From assembly GCA_965199825.1 (NCBI GenBank), contig OZ241329.1, positions 832,001-896,000 of the forward strand: 64,000 bases of DNA. Reading direction: 5' to 3'. The notes beneath the pieces are model-generated. The model searched no databases. It had not been told where the DNA came from and saw only the letters and a program-made list of their open reading frames with translations. How positions within the stretch are numbered: position 1 is the first letter of the stretch; every line of letters begins with the position of its first letter. Source of the stretch: Bdellovibrionales bacterium (GTDB taxonomy: Bacteria > Bdellovibrionota > Bdellovibrionia > Bdellovibrionales > UBA1609). Shown here in pieces: positions 15,410 to 23,390 of the stretch. A program made the position numbers and the translations under genes.

Positions 15410-16114
15410 TTGGCACCACTCGAATACACGCAGTTTGTGACCTTATTTATGTTAACCGTTGCGGTATTTTTATTGAGTGTGGCTTATCTGCGTGAGCGCA
15501 GTCGTCATCGTCGGCTTTATTGGCTCACCCGCCAGGCAGTGCATGACCTTCGTTCACCCCTTCATGTGCTGGATGCGGTTAGCAAATTTTTGCCCGACGA
15601 CTATAAGCTGCTTTTGAAATCATCGAAATGTCGCACCCAGGATATCTTAGAGGAACTGCATCACGATTTAGTCCCTTTGGAAATGAGCTCCAATCAACTT
15701 TTGAATTTGATCAACGAACTCATTACTGAAAAAGCGGCAGCCTTTCAAAATATTCAATTCACCAAAACTTTAAATGCACATCAAAACAAAAAATATTTGA
15801 TTCCGATTTCGCAATTGAAGCGCGCGCTCGAAAATGTTTTGCAAAATGCGGTGGATTCAAAAACCAAATCAATTCATTTGTCTTGCGAAGGGAATGATCA
15901 GTCCTTGAAACTCAAAGTGGCAGACCAAGGTTGCGGCATTGGATCTCAAGATTTAATTGCGATTCTCAAAGGCCAAAAAACAAAATTAAATGGTGAAGGT
16001 TTGGGCTTAAAGCAGGTTCGCTCGGCAATAAAGCAAATGGGTGGTCAATTTAAGATTGAATCCGGTAGAGGCACCCAAGTGACTCTCGAAATTCCAACCC
16101 TTACCACCCTTTAG
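15410..16114 (+). CDS. Small membrane-anchored sensor histidine kinase (orphan)
   Basis: One TM helix, H-box HDLRSPL, N-box NVLQNAVD, G1 DQGCGI, G2 GEGLGL. Confidence 0.85.
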   Translation: MAPLEYTQFVTLFMLTVAVFLLSVAYLRERSRHRRLYWLTRQAVHDLRSPLHVLDAVSKFLPDDYKLLLKSSKCRTQDILEELHHDLVPLEMSSNQLLNLINELITEKAAAFQNIQFTKTLNAHQNKKYLIPISQLKRALENVLQNAVDSKTKSIHLSCEGNDQSLKLKVADQGCGIGSQDLIAILKGQKTKLNGEGLGLKQVRSAIKQMGGQFKIESGRGTQVTLEIPTLTTL

Positions 16115-18074
16115 GTGGATTCATAATCGCACCCGGCGCTGCACTGGGCCCACCGAGCCGATTCATCTGCGAATTTAATAAATTTGGGCTCACAATTTTT
16201 ACCGAATATCCCACACGGCCACCATGGGCCACGCAAGATCCTGGAACTTTATCTTTAAACGCATCATCGGTCACTCCGCACTTTCCAAAATTGGCGATTT
16301 GGGCTGGATAATCAACCGCTCCATCTCCCGGTGCCCACGCGGTTAAAAGATGCTCGCGCTTTCGTGCAAAATAAAACGCTTGGGGGATTTGTATTTCTGA
16401 TCCCTGATTCTCGAGCATCTGGGTTTGGATATTGAACACCGGAATTTTTGGTTCGTGAGTTCCAAGATCTCCTCGAATCACTTGCGAAGATGGTATTTTA
16501 AATTTAGCGCGGTTAGCTTTGATGTACGGCAAATAATTAGACGAAAAATTGGGTTCAATCGAATAGTAGGTCATATCAAAAAGATCTGGCGCAATCGCGG
16601 CAAGCTCATAGCGGCGATAGTCCGGCATTTCATCGGTTTGATAATTCCAAGCCAGAGAATCGTTGGGGGATTGCGCACTAAATTGGGTAAAGATCTTCAT
16701 AAACCAAGCATATTTAATTCGAACCTTGGCCAAATCCTTAAATGCACCTTGTGAAAGATATGTGGTGAGCCCGTTTGTATCTCCCGGAAAGCGAGCATAG
16801 TTTGGCAATCGCCGGGTGTTTTTTGGATCATCCAATGTGCCATCCGATTTTGTGCGATCAGGAAGATTGTTGTCGGTAGGATTGCCCACCGAAAAAGTCG
16901 ATTGGCGCGGCCACTGCGATCCAAACCAAGGGCCGATGCGTCCGCCGAAGGGTTGAGCATAAGCTTTTGCTTTTAAGGTCACATAAGGCCCGATCGGAAA
17001 AAAGATTTGTCGTGGTGTGGTGGTGGCTTTAACTCCGACGTAGGCCATAAACCACGGGTTTTTTTCGACACCAATGCTGTTCGAAAAGGAATCTGTGGCG
17101 GGCGGCTCCCCTTTCATCCATGGAATTAATGGAGCTCCATTCAAAGTTCGAGGATCCATCAATTTGGATTGAGCCTCTGGTCGACTGGGAAGATCACTAA
17201 TCAGGCGCGGTAAAGCGGTACACCCTGCGCCGGCCTTAACATCGGTATAAACAATTGTTGGTGTGATTTTAATTTCGGGAAGCCACGTCGTTTTGGGATC
17301 AACACCTCCTAAGGAATTGAGCATTTCGAAACTTTGAATCGCATTGCTATTGGCAAAGGTCAGATTTTTTTTAAAGGTGTGTTGGGCCCCTTGCATTGCC
17401 GAGTCGCCATTGAGATCGATAAAATCATCGGGCGATGCCGAAAGATTTTGGGCCAAAGCATAGATTAAAGATTTTCTGTTTTCTTGTTCGAGGCGATAAT
17501 TTTGCAAGATGATCGCACCGAACCACCAATTGTAAGCCCCGAACACATCGCAAGCCGCATTAAAGGCGTTGATCAGTTGATTCGACAATGCCGAAACGGT
17601 CGCATTGATTCCGATAAATCCCGCAATGACGGGCACCGCCGGAAGTGGCGGAATACTTAAGCCCGGTTGATTGCACAAATTTTGATCCTTGGCGACTTCA
17701 TCCCAAGTGGGTTTATAATTCACACATAGCGCAGGCCTTGATGCAGCAAGATAGGGGGCCTCATCAATTTTTCCGGTCCAAGCGGGATGGACTGAAGACG
17801 AACTTTGCCGATCAAACCCAAGTGTTCCAAGCACTCGGTAACGAAAAGACAAAAGCTTCCAAGCTTGGCGAATTTGATAATTCACATGGGCAATGGCATT
17901 GAGATGTTCGGCTTGGCGTTCGGCCGCATAGTAGGCCGCAAGATCAACCGAATTTTGTAGATTGATTTTGTCGTGCACCACAAGCGCCACATTGAGAGTC
18001 ATCGCAAAAAGCACAAAAAGAACTTGAAAGATCAGGGCGATAAAGATTGCGGTTTGCCCGCGTTGATTATTCAT
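16101..18074 (-). CDS. TadG-like (Tad/Flp pseudopilin-domain) pilus-associated protein
   Basis: MNNQRGQTAIFIAL prepilin-like start and KINLQNSVDLAAYYAA Tad motif; start moved to ATG 18074. Confidence 0.8.
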   Translation of the reverse strand: MNNQRGQTAIFIALIFQVLFVLFAMTLNVALVVHDKINLQNSVDLAAYYAAERQAEHLNAIAHVNYQIRQAWKLLSFRYRVLGTLGFDRQSSSSVHPAWTGKIDEAPYLAASRPALCVNYKPTWDEVAKDQNLCNQPGLSIPPLPAVPVIAGFIGINATVSALSNQLINAFNAACDVFGAYNWWFGAIILQNYRLEQENRKSLIYALAQNLSASPDDFIDLNGDSAMQGAQHTFKKNLTFANSNAIQSFEMLNSLGGVDPKTTWLPEIKITPTIVYTDVKAGAGCTALPRLISDLPSRPEAQSKLMDPRTLNGAPLIPWMKGEPPATDSFSNSIGVEKNPWFMAYVGVKATTTPRQIFFPIGPYVTLKAKAYAQPFGGRIGPWFGSQWPRQSTFSVGNPTDNNLPDRTKSDGTLDDPKNTRRLPNYARFPGDTNGLTTYLSQGAFKDLAKVRIKYAWFMKIFTQFSAQSPNDSLAWNYQTDEMPDYRRYELAAIAPDLFDMTYYSIEPNFSSNYLPYIKANRAKFKIPSSQVIRGDLGTHEPKIPVFNIQTQMLENQGSEIQIPQAFYFARKREHLLTAWAPGDGAVDYPAQIANFGKCGVTDDAFKDKVPGSCVAHGGRVGYSVKIVSPNLLNSQMNRLGGPSAAPGAIMNPPKGW

Positions 18075-18149
18075 TGATTCTATTTTGACCGAGCTCGGTG
18101 GCAGGGAGAAACTGAATCTTTGATTGCACCTCGACGAAAGTAGGTACGA

Positions 18150-18896
18150 ATGCACATCCTTTTGATATTTTTGAATCTTTCAACCGCCCAGGTTTTGTTC
18201 GAGGGGTATTCAAAAATTTTGGTGGATAAAAAACATTCCGGCTTTAGCGTTCAACGTTATGAGTTTGATAAAAATAAAAAACAAATGAACGCATTTGTGT
18301 TTACCCGTTTGAATCCGCAAGGTGGCAACACCACCGAAACCTTGCATGCCACCGTAAAGGAAAATTTTTTTCCTGTTTCGTTTTTTTATTCTTTCAAAAA
18401 TGACAGCGGCTCAAAGACCATCGACGGCAAAATTAAAGATAAAAAAATGCAGATCAAAATATTTGAAAAGCAAAAGACCAAAACACTGATGCTTCCTCTC
18501 GAAAAAGGCATTTTCTTATCTAGTTTTTTAAATTACTTGATGCTGCAAGAGGGCTATTCGGTGGGAAAAAAACTGAGCTACAAAACTCTAGCCGAAGAAG
18601 AGGGTCAAATTGTTGAGGGCAAGACCCTGATCGAAAAAGAAGAGAATTTTGAAGGAATTTCGGTTTTTCGGGTTCAAAACAATTATAAGCATCTCGAATA
18701 TTCAACCTTGGTGAGTCTTCGAGGCGAGATTTTAAAAAGTTATTTTTCGGATTCAAAAATCGAAACCCAGCTGGTGAAGACCGCATCTGAGGCGACCAAG
18801 GGCATCCCCTATTCAAAGGCTGAATTGGTCTTACTGTTCGGGAGAGAACCTCTCGGAGACAAAAATATCCTTTTTAACCCCAACGAAAGCCCTTAA
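18150..18896 (+). CDS. Exported hypothetical protein (beta-rich)
   Basis: 248 aa ORF with signal-like N-terminus. Confidence 0.65.
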   Translation: MHILLIFLNLSTAQVLFEGYSKILVDKKHSGFSVQRYEFDKNKKQMNAFVFTRLNPQGGNTTETLHATVKENFFPVSFFYSFKNDSGSKTIDGKIKDKKMQIKIFEKQKTKTLMLPLEKGIFLSSFLNYLMLQEGYSVGKKLSYKTLAEEEGQIVEGKTLIEKEENFEGISVFRVQNNYKHLEYSTLVSLRGEILKSYFSDSKIETQLVKTASEATKGIPYSKAELVLLFGREPLGDKNILFNPNESP

Positions 18897-18928
18897 CTTT
18901 ATTTTTTAGCCATGCTCCAATTGTGATT

Positions 18929-20029
18929 ATGAATGTAGGTCAACTTTTTATAATTGGGCTCTCTGGCAAGACTTTAACTCAACAGGAACAAAAATTTTTG
19001 ATCGAAAATGACATCGGCGGAGTCATTTTGTTTGATCGAAATATAGAAAGTCCCGAGCAGGTCCATGCCCTGTGCAGTGAAATCCAAAAACTAAGGCACA
19101 AGCAAGCAACCCAAGCTCCTTTATTTATATCAATCGATATGGAAGGTGGCCGCGTGATGCGCTTTAAGGCCCCCTTTACGAAGTGGCCGCCGCTCGCCAG
19201 GGTCGGAGACCTTGAGTCAACCTCGGTGGCATTTCGTTTTGCCAATGCGATGGGTGCTGAATTAAATGCGGTCGGTGTGAATCTTGATTTTGCTCCCTGT
19301 GTGGATGTGTTTTCAAACCCCAAAAATGCGATCATTGGCGATCGCTCTTTGAGTACCAATGCCGAAACTGTGGCAAAGCTCGCCTCGGCCCTTGTGCGGG
19401 GCTATATCAAATCGGCAGTGATTCCATGTGCAAAGCATTTTCCGGGTCACGGCAATACTCTTCTTGATAGTCATTTTGATTTGCCGGTGGAAGATATCGA
19501 CATGAAGCGACTTCAAGATGTTGAACTTGTTCCGTTTAAAAAAGTTTTTCGTTCCCAACTTGAAATGGTCATGACCGCACATATCAAATTCACAGCGATT
19601 GATCCCGAGTGGCCGATCACACTGTCAGAAAAAGCGATCAAGAATTTTTTGCGTAAAGATTTGCGCTACCGCAACATTGTGATTTCAGACGATCTCGACA
19701 TGAAGGCGTTAACCAAAAACTACGATAAAGAAAAAATTCCGGTCCAAGCCCTCAAAGCGGGTTGTGATATTTTACTTTATTGTAATGAACCCGACTCTCC
19801 GCCGCTTGGTCTTGAGATGATCGCAAAAGCACTCAAAGACAAAACTATCGATGAGGCTTCGATCACTGAAAGCTTAAAGCGTGTCGAAAAATTAAAGGCC
19901 CAACACATCACTGCGCCCGATCCGCTCGATTTCGAGCACGCAAAAAAAATGATCGGTCATCCCGATCATATTCGTTTAGCAAAAGCGATCGAAAACGGCA
20001 GCGTCCCTGCCGATCTCTTAATTACTTAG
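18929..20029 (+). CDS. nagZ: Beta-N-acetylhexosaminidase (GH3)
   Basis: IDMEGGRV, FAPCVDV, KHFPGHG..DSH, MTAHI, SDDLDM. Confidence 0.93.
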   Translation: MNVGQLFIIGLSGKTLTQQEQKFLIENDIGGVILFDRNIESPEQVHALCSEIQKLRHKQATQAPLFISIDMEGGRVMRFKAPFTKWPPLARVGDLESTSVAFRFANAMGAELNAVGVNLDFAPCVDVFSNPKNAIIGDRSLSTNAETVAKLASALVRGYIKSAVIPCAKHFPGHGNTLLDSHFDLPVEDIDMKRLQDVELVPFKKVFRSQLEMVMTAHIKFTAIDPEWPITLSEKAIKNFLRKDLRYRNIVISDDLDMKALTKNYDKEKIPVQALKAGCDILLYCNEPDSPPLGLEMIAKALKDKTIDEASITESLKRVEKLKAQHITAPDPLDFEHAKKMIGHPDHIRLAKAIENGSVPADLLIT

Positions 20030-20955
20030 TAGCAGCTATCGAGAGTGGTTGCGATGGTGACACCAGCACTTGTGAGATTTGCAGTCCCGCATCCGGTGAT
20101 CACCAACGTTTCAGACGTATTCACGAGCGCATTCGCAACCACATTGTTTGGAGTTGCACTGGTGGCCGCAAACGCAGTTGTAAGCGAACCCGAAACGGGG
20201 TTGCAGCAGCTGTCGTTGTAAACCACATTGGAAAAGGTGGTGGTTCCCTTAACTTTTGCCTTGTTATGCCAAACCGTAACCGCACCACTGACCGTGCGCG
20301 ACCCACTGGCCTCACTCACCGTCACGCTTCCATCGATCGAATGATCAAAAGATGTGGCGTAAAGACGTTGACGGACCATCACTCCGGTTCGCACTCCCGC
20401 ACCAGAAAATGTGACCTGTGATCCATATCCTGAATTAATATTTGTTGCGATCGTCGCAGACTGATAGTTCGAAAGATTAGCGCTGCTATGATCGATGGTC
20501 ACCATCTCGCCTTTAGCAGAAGTTCGTGTGCCCGATGAGGGTGAGCCGCTTGTGACAAACTGACGATTGAGGGTTGTCCCGATCACCGTCGGAAATGTGC
20601 CGCAGGTTAATGCCCCGGTGCCTAGAGAAATTCCTAAGGTGCCGGACCAAGTGGCCTGAGAACTTCCAAAACTACAATTGGAATAGGCAAGAATCGATAC
20701 ACCGCTCGTGTTGCTGCATCCTACACCCCCAGTTGTTCTTAAAGTCGGGCAAGCGGTTGAAGCAAAAGCAGATTCAATCAATTTGGGAAATGAATATCTG
20801 CTGGTTGTTCCGCTTGAGGAACTCGTATTCATCGCAGCTCCCACGGATGAAGCCGCAGCTCCGCTCGCTGTGACGTCGGTGATACTGGAACCACCCAACC
20901 CTGCCGTGCAACCAATAGAAACAGAAACTAGGACTAAACAAATTAAATTTTTCAT
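20026..20955 (-). CDS. Ser/Thr/Gly-rich lipoprotein, hypothetical
   Basis: Lipobox SIGC, several Cys residues, beta-strand-rich composition. Confidence 0.7.
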   Translation of the reverse strand: MKNLICLVLVSVSIGCTAGLGGSSITDVTASGAAASSVGAAMNTSSSSGTTSRYSFPKLIESAFASTACPTLRTTGGVGCSNTSGVSILAYSNCSFGSSQATWSGTLGISLGTGALTCGTFPTVIGTTLNRQFVTSGSPSSGTRTSAKGEMVTIDHSSANLSNYQSATIATNINSGYGSQVTFSGAGVRTGVMVRQRLYATSFDHSIDGSVTVSEASGSRTVSGAVTVWHNKAKVKGTTTFSNVVYNDSCCNPVSGSLTTAFAATSATPNNVVANALVNTSETLVITGCGTANLTSAGVTIATTLDSCY

Positions 20956-21141
20956 ATCGGTAGTTTTGCTCGGTTTTTATTTTTATTGAAGTCGAGATAT
21001 GAAGACTGGGACTTAGGTCTGCTTTATTCAGTGGTGATTGCTAGGCTCTGAGTTGTTGTATTTGTTTGATTTTGAAGCGGCAGCACGACTTGATTTTCGG
21101 CCAGTCTGTTTTGTGGACGAAGGTAGCGTCCGTGCATTGAT

Positions 21142-21684
21142 TTACCCTGCGGTTTTTTTAAAGAAATCCCGCCAATACTCTTTACAACTTTTCTCAAAAT
21201 GTTTGCGAGCGGCTTTTCCAAAGTGCGCTTGAATTAAATTTGCTTCTAAATAATCAAACATGCGAGTTACGTCTCGCCCTTTAGTGATGATGCGAGTGAA
21301 AAGAACCGAATCCCAAAAACGCCCGAACCTTTTTCCTTTTTTTGCACGAACAGTTATTCGTGCGATCACTCCCGCAACAACTCTAAAAAAAGTTTTAACC
21401 AGGGCACGGTCTTGAAACCGAATGATGAGGTGAAAATGGTTGCTCACATTGCTGTAAGCCGCAATACCTACCCCATACTTTTTAGCTTTAGAAAAAATTA
21501 AATTTTTATACTTGATCTGCATATCAAATTTTTTGAAACTTTGGTCACCCTTGGCATGCTGAGATTTAAGAATGACGTGGTGCAAACGCTTTTTGTCTAA
21601 CGGACGCACGGTTTTCCGACGACCTTTCATTTGTCCACCATATGATTTTTGTTTTGATAAATTAAAAAGTGGCAGCTGTTTCAT
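21142..21684 (-). CDS. Y1 HUH nuclease/transposase (IS200/TnpA or RAYT-like)
   Basis: HHVILKS, HUH motif NHFHLII, FW..FTRII and candidate catalytic Tyr in DYLEAN; 180 aa, basic. Confidence 0.85.
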   Translation of the reverse strand: MKQLPLFNLSKQKSYGGQMKGRRKTVRPLDKKRLHHVILKSQHAKGDQSFKKFDMQIKYKNLIFSKAKKYGVGIAAYSNVSNHFHLIIRFQDRALVKTFFRVVAGVIARITVRAKKGKRFGRFWDSVLFTRIITKGRDVTRMFDYLEANLIQAHFGKAARKHFEKSCKEYWRDFFKKTAG

Positions 21685-21690
21685 TTATGT

Positions 21691-21719
21691 AAACTATATC
21701 TATATATGTGAAAATGCAA
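21691..21719 (-). promoter_or_regulatory. Putative sigma70 promoter giving a leaderless transcript of the HUH gene
   Basis: TTGCAT-N17-TAGTTT-N6-ATG; no SD sequence. Confidence 0.5.
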
Positions 21720-21726
21720 TAGAAAC

Positions 21727-22167
21727 GCTGGAGTAATATCATTTTACTTGAGGAAAAAGTTGATTTCTTTCGTGCTCGATTCAATCCTAGGTTCGGTCAG
21801 GGCAATGTCATTTTCTTTGAGTAAATCTTTACTAAATTTATATTTTACTGCGCGATCCGAGGCTCGATCGAGGGCAATTTTATTTTGTTTAAATAAACCG
21901 TATTAACAATTTGATTTCTTCTTGCTCGATTCCTTTTCAGATTCGGTCAGGGCAATGTCATTTTTTTTAATAAAACTTTATTGAGTTTATTTCTGTCCTA
22001 ATGAAGCCAACGCCAGGCTCGGTCAGGGCAATGTCATTTTCTTTAAAGCGTTTTAACGAATCTAATCCCTTGTGCTCCTACCAATCATAGGCTCGGTGGG
22101 GCAATGTCATTTTGTTCAATCAATATCTATTTTCCTCACCATCATTTCGGTCGAAGTAATATCATTT
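21727..22167. repeat. Interspaced direct-repeat array (7 units, consensus AGGyTCGGTCAGGGCAATGTCATTTT)
   Basis: Identical 22-mer TCGGTCAGGGCAATGTCATTTT at 21793, 21943, 22019; variants at 21864 and 22093; degenerate end copies at ~21727 and 22147. Confidence 0.92.
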
Positions 22168-22610
22168 ATTTATAAAATCAGCGGAGTGTTTCTTAAACGA
22201 ATTCATCCACCACATAATAACAAATCTCCGAGGTGTTCGGATTTTGATCAAATCAAAACTAAAACAGATGAAGCCAATGAACTATAATCCGATCATTCTT
22301 AATGAAGTTGGGTTGTCTGAGGACTTCGCAATGATTTAGTATCGAGCTGTACATTCGGTTTTGGTCGAAATTAAAGATTAAATTGTTGCGCTGCTTTCTT
22401 AAAAAACTGATCTCCACATTGATCGGCCAGCGACTGAGTTAGAGCAAAAGCAAGTTCACATCCTGCGACTCCAAACCAAACGAGCCGACACCATTCCCTC
22501 AACCAAACAAAAATTGTCACCACCAAGTAATTTCTCCTGCTGATCTCAATTGTGCCCCCAAACTTGTGCGGTCTTGGGTTTGCTGAATACAGCATCGAAA
22601 GAGGTTGCCC

Positions 22611-23390
22611 ATGCAAACACGTTCATTTGGTTCGATCATAATTTCGATTTTGCTTCATGCCGGATTATTCTTAAGCTTGGTCTTTGCTGGTGAACGCGTG
22701 ACTGCGCCAAAGATTGAAAGCCCCGTAGAAATGTCGACGGCTGCACCGGAAGGTCCAAAGACTTCTGACACTCCGGCACCTCAGCCTCAAGCACCGGTTG
22801 CCGCAGCTCCAACACCACAGCCGCAACCCTCTTCACAAAAAATTGCTAAAGTGAAATCGGTTGCCGCACCCAAAGTCGCAGTCAAATCTGCAGATGCCGA
22901 AACCGAAGCAACACCTGGAGTTGAAATTGAATCCGAACCCGCAGACTCGGTGGAATCTGCAGTTACAGCGCCTTCAGTCGTTGCTGCTCCTGCTATCGTT
23001 GCGGCCCCTGCAGCCGGAATTTCTGAAAGCGAACCCCTCGATAAAGCCGAGCCCTCAGGTGGCGGTAATGGCGGAGTGGGACGCTCATATTTGGATCTTA
23101 AACAACAGCCCGGAAATAGACCGCCTCAGTATCCTTCAGAGGCCCGCCTTGAAAAACGTCAGGGCCAAGTGCAGTTGGCTTATTATGTCACTGCAGAAGG
23201 AACGGTTCGCGATGTTAAAATTTTGAAATCATCAGGATTTGCCGACTTAGATCAACAGGCCGCATCGGCAGTTGAGAAATACAAGTATGTACCTGGACAA
23301 GAAGGTTGGGCCGAACACCCAGTGAATTTCACTTTAAAAGGACCTGCAGAAGCAGCGCCCTCAAGACTTCGCACCAGCCAGAACAATTAG
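22611..23390 (+). CDS. tonB: Energy transducer TonB family protein
   Basis: TM segment with SILLH, Pro/Ala-rich linker, YPSEARLEKRQGQV..SSGFADLDQQA TonB_C domain. Confidence 0.85.
   Translation: MQTRSFGSIIISILLHAGLFLSLVFAGERVTAPKIESPVEMSTAAPEGPKTSDTPAPQPQAPVAAAPTPQPQPSSQKIAKVKSVAAPKVAVKSADAETEATPGVEIESEPADSVESAVTAPSVVAAPAIVAAPAAGISESEPLDKAEPSGGGNGGVGRSYLDLKQQPGNRPPQYPSEARLEKRQGQVQLAYYVTAEGTVRDVKILKSSGFADLDQQAASAVEKYKYVPGQEGWAEHPVNFTLKGPAEAAPSRLRTSQNN

Follow-up and report, generated by a model that had tools for sequence, protein, structure and literature searches.

To our knowledge, all characterised Y1 transposases (IS608, ISDra2, and TnpA-REP) recognise folded hairpins. In a survey of TnpA-Y1 proteins, three classes are distinguished by their signatures, Y---Q in class 1, Y---NP in class 2, and Y----Q in class 3, the last being found mainly in Planctomycetes and Acidobacteria (PMC6006769, Quentin et al. 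2018); the same text gives QL[SD]LF as a clamp-binding consensus that is not conserved in IS200 TnpA. According to PMC3971601, IS200 TnpA peptides bind the beta clamp through their C-terminal region, and IS200 shows an orientation bias in only 32% of chromosomes. Our literature search, which did not extend to most subscription journals or to all supplements, where members could be listed, returned no description of this family. The term "Bdellovibrio" is absent from the main texts of PMC6006769 and PMC3733652 and from two supplements of PMC6006769.

The window studied here (the whole stretch of DNA that was analysed, 64,000 nt) was originally predicted to hold a stand-alone Y1/HUH gene with an adjacent CRISPR-like interspaced array. 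An intact Y1/HUH (TnpA-like) gene encoding a 180-aa protein is indeed present on the minus strand at 21142..21684, and an array of seven co-oriented cores lies upstream of it; however, the gene does not stand alone, as it is one of 17 paralogs in the genome, all of them open reading frames (ORFs), and a member of a Bdellovibrionota family. On one side, the flanking genes (16101-20955) encode a Tad-domain protein, a GH3 glycoside hydrolase, and a Ser/Thr-rich protein without an assigned family, and on the opposite side lies a gene for a TonB-C protein (22605-23390). These neighbours show no link to the HUH element, and the paralogs have different neighbours.

Y1_Tnp was the sole Pfam family found in the 180-aa ORF (25.6 bits, cut-off 23). 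Both NCBIfam models scored below their cut-offs (RAYT, 23 against 80; IS200, 17.5 against 55), and no helix-turn-helix family was detected with either Pfam or NCBIfam. The HUH motif, H83-F84-H85, is encoded at 21430..21438, and the catalytic Y145, placed by alignment with the tyrosine of IS608, and N149 are encoded at 21238..21252 (both on the minus strand). Eight residues (G16, G17, R27, H36, H83, H85, Y145, and N149) are invariant among 47 aligned family members. The tyrosine motif of the family is Y-x-x-x-N, without a P next to the N: all 217 loci that match Y...[N/Q], of 224, have N at this position, and none of the 217 has Y---NP. This motif fits none of the three class signatures as given in PMC6006769. 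A profile of the family matched IS608 TnpA at 1e-7 and TnpA-REP at 0.64. The AlphaFold2 model of the protein (pLDDT 92) ends in one helix; with this model, Foldseek gave its best E-values for IS608/ISDra2 TnpA and its best query TM-score for TnpA-REP (0.57). A homodimer prediction returned a score of 0.00, which is evidence neither for nor against a dimer.

The N-terminus of the protein carries QLPLF at codons 3-7 (21664..21678, minus strand), a predicted beta-sliding-clamp binding motif. A clamp-like pattern, Q-x-x-[LFM]-[FLI], is found in the N-terminus of 136/224 family members, compared to 4/224 control windows, and the N-terminal QLxLF probably tethers the protein to the replication clamp. 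Codons 16-28 (21601..21639, minus strand) encode a basic GG..RK..RP arm, which its conservation and clade-dependence mark as a candidate site-recognition element: residues 16-28 vary with the class of word found at the promoter (see below), and R23 and K24 are present in ~100% of the 148 rows bearing the array word, whereas other residues occupy these positions in clades with other words. Codon conservation at the 3′ end of the ORF is not unusual, giving no sign of a DNA signal embedded there. Within 21142-21684, residues S81, G73, R113, and V139 differ from those common to most paralogs; in addition, the tree branch of this copy measures 0.2, compared to 0.05-0.1 in sister paralogs, and its proximal word is degenerate. 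The window copy may be starting to decay.

A predicted sigma-70 promoter occupies 21685..21719 (minus strand), with the −35 (TTGCAT) at 21714-21719 and the −10 (TAGTTT) at 21691-21696. It is conserved among the paralogs and was not reported by a strict consensus promoter scan. A −10-like TAnnnT lies 5-8 nt before the start codon in 15/17 paralogs, and a Shine-Dalgarno-like word was found in 0/17. Given a −10 box this close to the ATG and no Shine-Dalgarno sequence, the paralog mRNA is predicted to be leaderless, which we consider likely.

From 58 to 481 nt upstream of the gene, a 12-nt word that reads ATGACATTGCCC on the gene strand occurs seven times in the same orientation; four copies are exact and three degenerate. 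The exact copies are at 21800..21811 (within the 22-mer at 21793), 21950..21961, 22026..22037, and 22099..22110, all on the minus strand like the rest of the array. The copy at 21872..21883 reads ATAAAATTGCCC and retains the family core ATTGCCC. The promoter-proximal copy at 21731..21742 has decayed to ATGATATTACTC and is the counterpart by position of an intact site in paralog 1557903; the distal copy at 22154..22165 has decayed as well. These two end copies have the variant ATGATATTACT in common, which is absent in that form elsewhere on contig C1, and the variant ATGATATTACTYC occurs on C1 only at the same two copies. The core-to-core spacing is 69/72/78/76/73/55 nt, which agrees within indel ambiguity with the 71/79/76/74/54 nt of the original prediction. 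A contig from a second sequencing run is identical across 20467-22825; both runs belong to one study, and the assembly may derive from the first of them. In a single low-depth contig from another study (depth 3.7), 21032-21136, just past the stop codon, is swapped for 117 other letters; this contig was not relied on.

The repeat unit was first taken to be a 22-mer, identical at 21793, 21943, and 22019. These three copies are exact, and the 2.84-Mb genome holds no other match at ≤3 mismatches. When the 920-nt intergenic region was resampled 500 times under a first-order Markov model, the longest thrice-occurring word measured 6-13 nt, compared to 22 nt observed. The conserved unit of the array is nevertheless the 12-mer, not the 22-mer. 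The whole array (21731..22165) comprises seven mutually homologous units of 55-78 nt. Self-alignment of the array shows a dimer period of ~150 nt (71.6% over 236 nt at this offset), and 13/15 pairs of spacers, taken from unit position 25 onward, align above shuffles at p ≤ 0.05 (z up to 4.8). The spacers are only 62-84% alike, while the word stays exact in the units. The likeness among the spacers marks the array as a tandem duplication that has since decayed, rather than a spacer archive.

A CRISPR array consists of direct repeats at regular intervals, separated by unique, unrelated spacers of constant length. The window array resembles one in its direct repeats and regular intervals, but its spacers are related, its unit length varies across loci, its conserved part is 12 nt, and the genome, scored 100% complete, has no match to the cas1 profile. 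No spacer has a significant phage match (best E 0.05). The CRISPR reading was excluded on the basis of the homologous spacers, the lack of a significant phage match, and the lack of cas1. A tnpB gene (PF07282) was likewise not found in this 100% complete genome. RNA folding of the array is no better than that of shuffles, with z = −0.37 for one strand and −0.55 for the other, and the word-bearing 40-mers fold at 0 to −4.2 kcal/mol without a shared stem. Rfam gave zero matches at the array locus or at five related loci. Neither a structured RNA nor the suggested unit-length RNA product thus gains support from folding or Rfam.

The 17 paralogs include 14 close ones (51-100% identity) that form one clade (100% SH-aLRT) in a quick tree of 221 rows, from which 3 of 224 loci were dropped for X or length. 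Each of the 14 carries the word upstream on its own strand, in two to eight copies in 12 cases, and intact copies persist up to ~950 nt upstream. ATGACANTGCCC occurs 44 times in the genome (0.9 expected), with 39/44 copies ≤2 kb from a paralog and 5/44 away from any; the repeat is therefore not dispersed independently of the gene. At one locus without a HUH gene nearby (L090; C1 290532 and 290889), two co-oriented copies lie 357 nt apart, possibly as a remnant. The repeat unit, 55-78 nt long in the window, measures about 140-230 nt at other paralogs (~142, 200-230, and 224). Repeated blocks tend to begin shortly before and end shortly after a word, an observation that is partly circular, given that no other part is conserved as well as the word; at paralog 155843, for example, a 253-nt repeat (89% identical) runs from 11 nt before one word to 3-4 nt after another. 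The six closest paralog copies differ by a dS of 1.0-2.4 with a dN/dS of 0.04-0.15, indicating old copies under purifying selection, and no near-identical pair is present in the genome. Two words separated by a gap of 30-60 nt were found in this genome only, among 301 searched. A two-word pattern had three matches in viral contigs; one of these, L275, falls within a gene for a repeat protein and is unrelated.

With 749 clusters at 50% identity (E ≤ 1e-30), this is a large family, and Bdellovibrionota groups are the titles of nearly all of its 80 best named loci, with which the Atlas concurs. We collected 251 matches in 250 loci; filtering by score and flank kept 240 of them, which dereplication reduced to 224. 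The following counts are qualified by the alignment used to collect most of the loci, which favoured the clade of the window gene, and by the non-independence of kin. Outside this genome, 129/203 dereplicated loci have the core A[TCG]TGCCC on the gene strand within the nearest 200 nt upstream, compared to 7/203 on the opposite strand, 9/187 further upstream, and 5/191 downstream. The word of the family has the consensus ATNAYATTGCCCY; within it, the asymmetric half ATTGCCC is invariant and is found on one strand in every case. In 91/144 loci, no more than 12 nt separate the end of the word from the start codon, and the word overlaps the −10 box or the discriminator. A word-only search of 300 genomes of the phylum gave 11 matches outside this genome; five of these are followed by a co-oriented family gene 58-126 nt downstream, and six are not. 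The word thus sits at the promoter of most genes in a large HUH transposase family of predatory bacteria. The word may bear some likeness to the MatP site and GGTGCCTGTCAC-type repeats, on which no conclusion here is based.

Extra copies of the word are found in only 4/106 loci with ≥500 nt of flank (opposite-strand control, 1), compared to 10/14 in this genome when counted by the same rule. The single word is accordingly the trait of the family and arrays are mostly local, which is the strongest finding against the originally suggested HUH-plus-array system; the upstream arrays sought in homologues are present among the close paralogs (at least two copies in 12/14), but are rare elsewhere in the family. 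Sister clades carry other promoter words, ACCTTCGYTCAC, GACATCGCT, and CCATCGCCCC, and a clade with ACCTTCGTTCAC is distinct from the ATTGCCC clade. Word class follows the protein tree, with 19 changes compared to 68 when shuffled (0/200 shuffles as low); 45/224 loci have none of the four tested words. Collectively, these results show a word that is tied to the family, strand-specific, changing with the protein clade, normally single, and amplified in this genome into units that have the word at their borders.

Compared with IS200/IS605, the family has the same core fold with an HUH and a single catalytic Tyr, its best match to a solved sequence (E 1e-7), and its best Foldseek E-values, and it is likewise multi-copy and mobile. 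However, it has Y-x-x-x-N where class 1 has Y---Q (PMC6006769), it lacks conserved subterminal hairpins with fixed cleavage words as well as a conserved right end, it has no tnpB, and it bears an extra N-terminal arm. The clamp motif is N-terminal here and in the C-terminal helix E in IS200/IS605 TnpA. Moreover, the copies are highly diverged, and an orientation bias is absent: with the replication origin placed by GC skew and dnaN, 9 of the 17 paralogs are co-directional with replication and 8 head-on, a small sample.

RAYT/REPtron systems (PDB 4er8; PMC8266576 and 10.1101/119735) also place a Y1 HUH gene by a clustered cognate repeat that co-varies with the protein. Further likenesses are the Asn four residues past the Tyr, the best query TM-score (0.57), and old copies under purifying selection; the word of one sister HUH clade is even dispersed (96 copies). 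The family differs from RAYTs in having no NP motif, an NCBIfam score of 23 against a cut-off of 80, and 17 genes where RAYTs are mostly single-copy. Its word is not a GTAG-footed palindrome, nor does it come in inverted pairs; it is confined to one side and a single strand, overlaps with the promoter, and is undispersed (39/44 copies beside a paralog). TIRtron/TIRYT systems (PMC3733652, Di Nocera et al. 2013; subclass 2.1 of PMC6006769) similarly tie a short G-rich motif, sometimes clustered, to a Y1 gene, and the reverse strand of the family word begins with GGGG. TIRs, in the same sources, are inverted, on both sides, and read GGGGWSAS, whereas the family word is direct, upstream only, and reads GGGGCA; the C-terminal helix-turn-helix domain of TIRYTs was not found in the 180-aa protein. 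Class 3 TnpA-Y1, which we compared by description, shares an N-terminal extension and several paralogs per genome and is called an intermediate between IS and REPtron in PMC6006769; the Y----Q and CnGA-footed hairpins described there were unseen in the family. Taken together, the family pairs protein and word like REPtron/TIRtron and is multi-copy and mobile like IS200, yet fails defining tests of each. The original prediction that the repeat fits neither the hairpin ends of IS200/IS605 nor GTAG-led REPs is in keeping with these comparisons.

Several genomes have their own expansions of the family. Among relatives, HUH pairs 94-97% identical lie in different flanks, and a 96%-identical gene lies in different flanks of two genomes that are ~87-93% alike. 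In genome G032, a stretch of 43 nt that contains no gene joins the flank found upstream of one copy to the flank found downstream of another. Loci L116 and L106, compared with G032:C8 108643-108687, are two HUH copies at synteny breakpoints, with palindromic MITE-like elements adjoining. Because rearrangement and MITE-like inserts are involved, the G032/G041 junction gives no exact ends; this comparison shows movement and an association with breakpoints. Between close copies at different sites, homology mostly begins shortly upstream of the promoter and ends no more than ~20 nt from the stop codon. No conserved right end or target word was found in close pairs, and no terminal hairpin is shared around the stop codon in the 17 paralogs. 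Purifying selection maintains the gene with its catalytic residues intact, and closely related copies occupy non-orthologous places in related genomes.

We consider it rather likely that the word is the docking site of its own protein, serving as left-end signal and operator of a hairpin-free Y1 unit, with arrays formed by site-to-site duplication. The protein, tethered to the clamp via the N-terminal QLxLF, would read the word by sequence, likely via basic arm residues 16-28, without a hairpin. The word would be the single left-end signal of a mobile promoter-plus-ORF unit and, because it overlaps or abuts the promoter, also a site of autorepression. Nicking and rejoining, or plain recombination, between two copies would duplicate the intervening DNA to give an array, in which loss of the word would leave a unit to decay, as at the two ends of the window array; the originally proposed role of the repeats as nicking/joining substrates is plausible. 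Binding, autorepression, clamp tethering, nicking, and HUH-driven duplication are what we infer from sequence patterns. An unrelated multi-copy family of this genome has similar upstream arrays of another word, so the arrays may instead stem from a host-driven, genome-wide tendency to duplicate promoter regions, without HUH catalysis. The array would then be a by-product and a cluster of putative binding sites, not a guide-RNA gene, and as a local by-product it takes away the CRISPR-like prospect. In a bolder form, which we put forward only tentatively, the unit would be a one-ended, hairpin-free ssDNA transposon, whose clamp-tethered HUH protein uses its N-terminal arm to read a clade-specific 12-nt word as the only end signal and itself builds the tandem arrays through strand transfer between words.

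The word might instead be an operator only, bound as dsDNA by the HUH protein or a host regulator that represses a risky nicking enzyme, with no role in cutting; ordinary slippage or recombination would make arrays, kept where the site lies outside the core promoter since extra sites tighten repression. We regard this as rather unlikely, despite several observations that suit it. The word overlaps the −10 box or discriminator in 91/144 loci, where an extra copy is found in 1/79, and extra copies are commoner where it lies further upstream (3/27 outside the genome, 10/14 within it), although the near/far contrast outside the genome (1/79 vs 3/27) is weak. TGACA-N-TGCCC is a pseudo-palindrome with a variable centre, but the invariant ATTGCCC half is asymmetric and always on one strand. 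A putative HNH family has parallel arrays. Against an operator-only role also stand the intact copies up to ~950 nt upstream and the lack of a detected helix-turn-helix family. A domesticated, RAYT-like host function is improbable in our view: the genes would be immobile and the protein would spread or maintain the word as a non-palindromic equivalent of REPs that benefits the host. The 17/17 open ORFs, the dS ≥ 1 and dN/dS of 0.04-0.15 among the six copies compared, and a sister word present at 96 places here (75 in ORFs) but 0-24 in 40 relatives agree with such a function, as does the resemblance of RAYTs to housekeeping genes described in 10.1101/119735. Immobile genes are nevertheless difficult to reconcile with 17 copies here and genome-specific expansions elsewhere, or with presence and absence at non-orthologous sites in close genomes, and the word of the window clade is undispersed, with 5/44 copies away from a paralog.

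That transcription and processing of the array yield ~75-nt repeat-spacer RNAs acting as guides or regulators of the HUH protein is very unlikely. The regular spacing in the window and a weak promoter-like match that begins at the 21811 word copy would fit, but promoter-like sites number 3, compared to 4.0 by chance, and most homologues have a single, promoter-overlapping word. Furthermore, the unit length of 55-78 nt here against ~140-230 nt at other paralogs, the mutually homologous spacers with no significant phage match (E 0.05 at best), and the lack of structure or an Rfam match all argue against guide RNAs. Least credible to us, with hardly any likelihood, is the view that the loci are old and fixed and swap sequence through gene conversion, with arrays as neutral debris. 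Conversion would explain why homology stops at the promoter and the stop codon without defined ends, as the limits of homology match those of selected sequence, and the pairs L242/L250 and L199/L209 share one flank only; it leaves unexplained the first dispersal to unrelated sites and an exact word in units whose spacers are 62-84% alike.

A family in which each clade is paired with a short, unstructured promoter word makes sequence-only recognition directly testable, and it offers matched protein/word pairs with a candidate specificity arm. It also bears on how RAYT-like enzymes spread repeats, as one word stays by its genes while a sister word has spread through the chromosome. If the one-ended transposon were real, the proteins would be natural, orthogonal 180-aa ssDNA cutters and joiners whose 12-nt specificity can be changed, and they would serve as a model for the spread of short words in genomes, including within genes.

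The promoter word of a sister HUH clade, ACCTTCGYYCAC, has 96 copies on C1 (1.5 expected), 75 of them in ORFs, without replication polarity and with 0-24 copies in 40 relatives. One of the 96 genomic copies, ACCTTCGTCCAC, lies 18 nt past the stop codon of the window gene (21113..21124, minus strand), which may be a chance occurrence. A multi-copy family of ~275 aa (putative HNH) has 27 loci on C1, e.g., 638517-639324 and 1203215-1204067, with its own upstream tandem arrays of TCGTGCCC, also within the ORF, in the same layout as the HUH family. Finally, an AACACC..GGAG box with a small hairpin lies at 22223..22241 (minus strand) and also precedes other HUH paralogs as well as unrelated HNH genes; the pattern has 21 matches, 11 near HUH genes and 5 near the putative HNH family.
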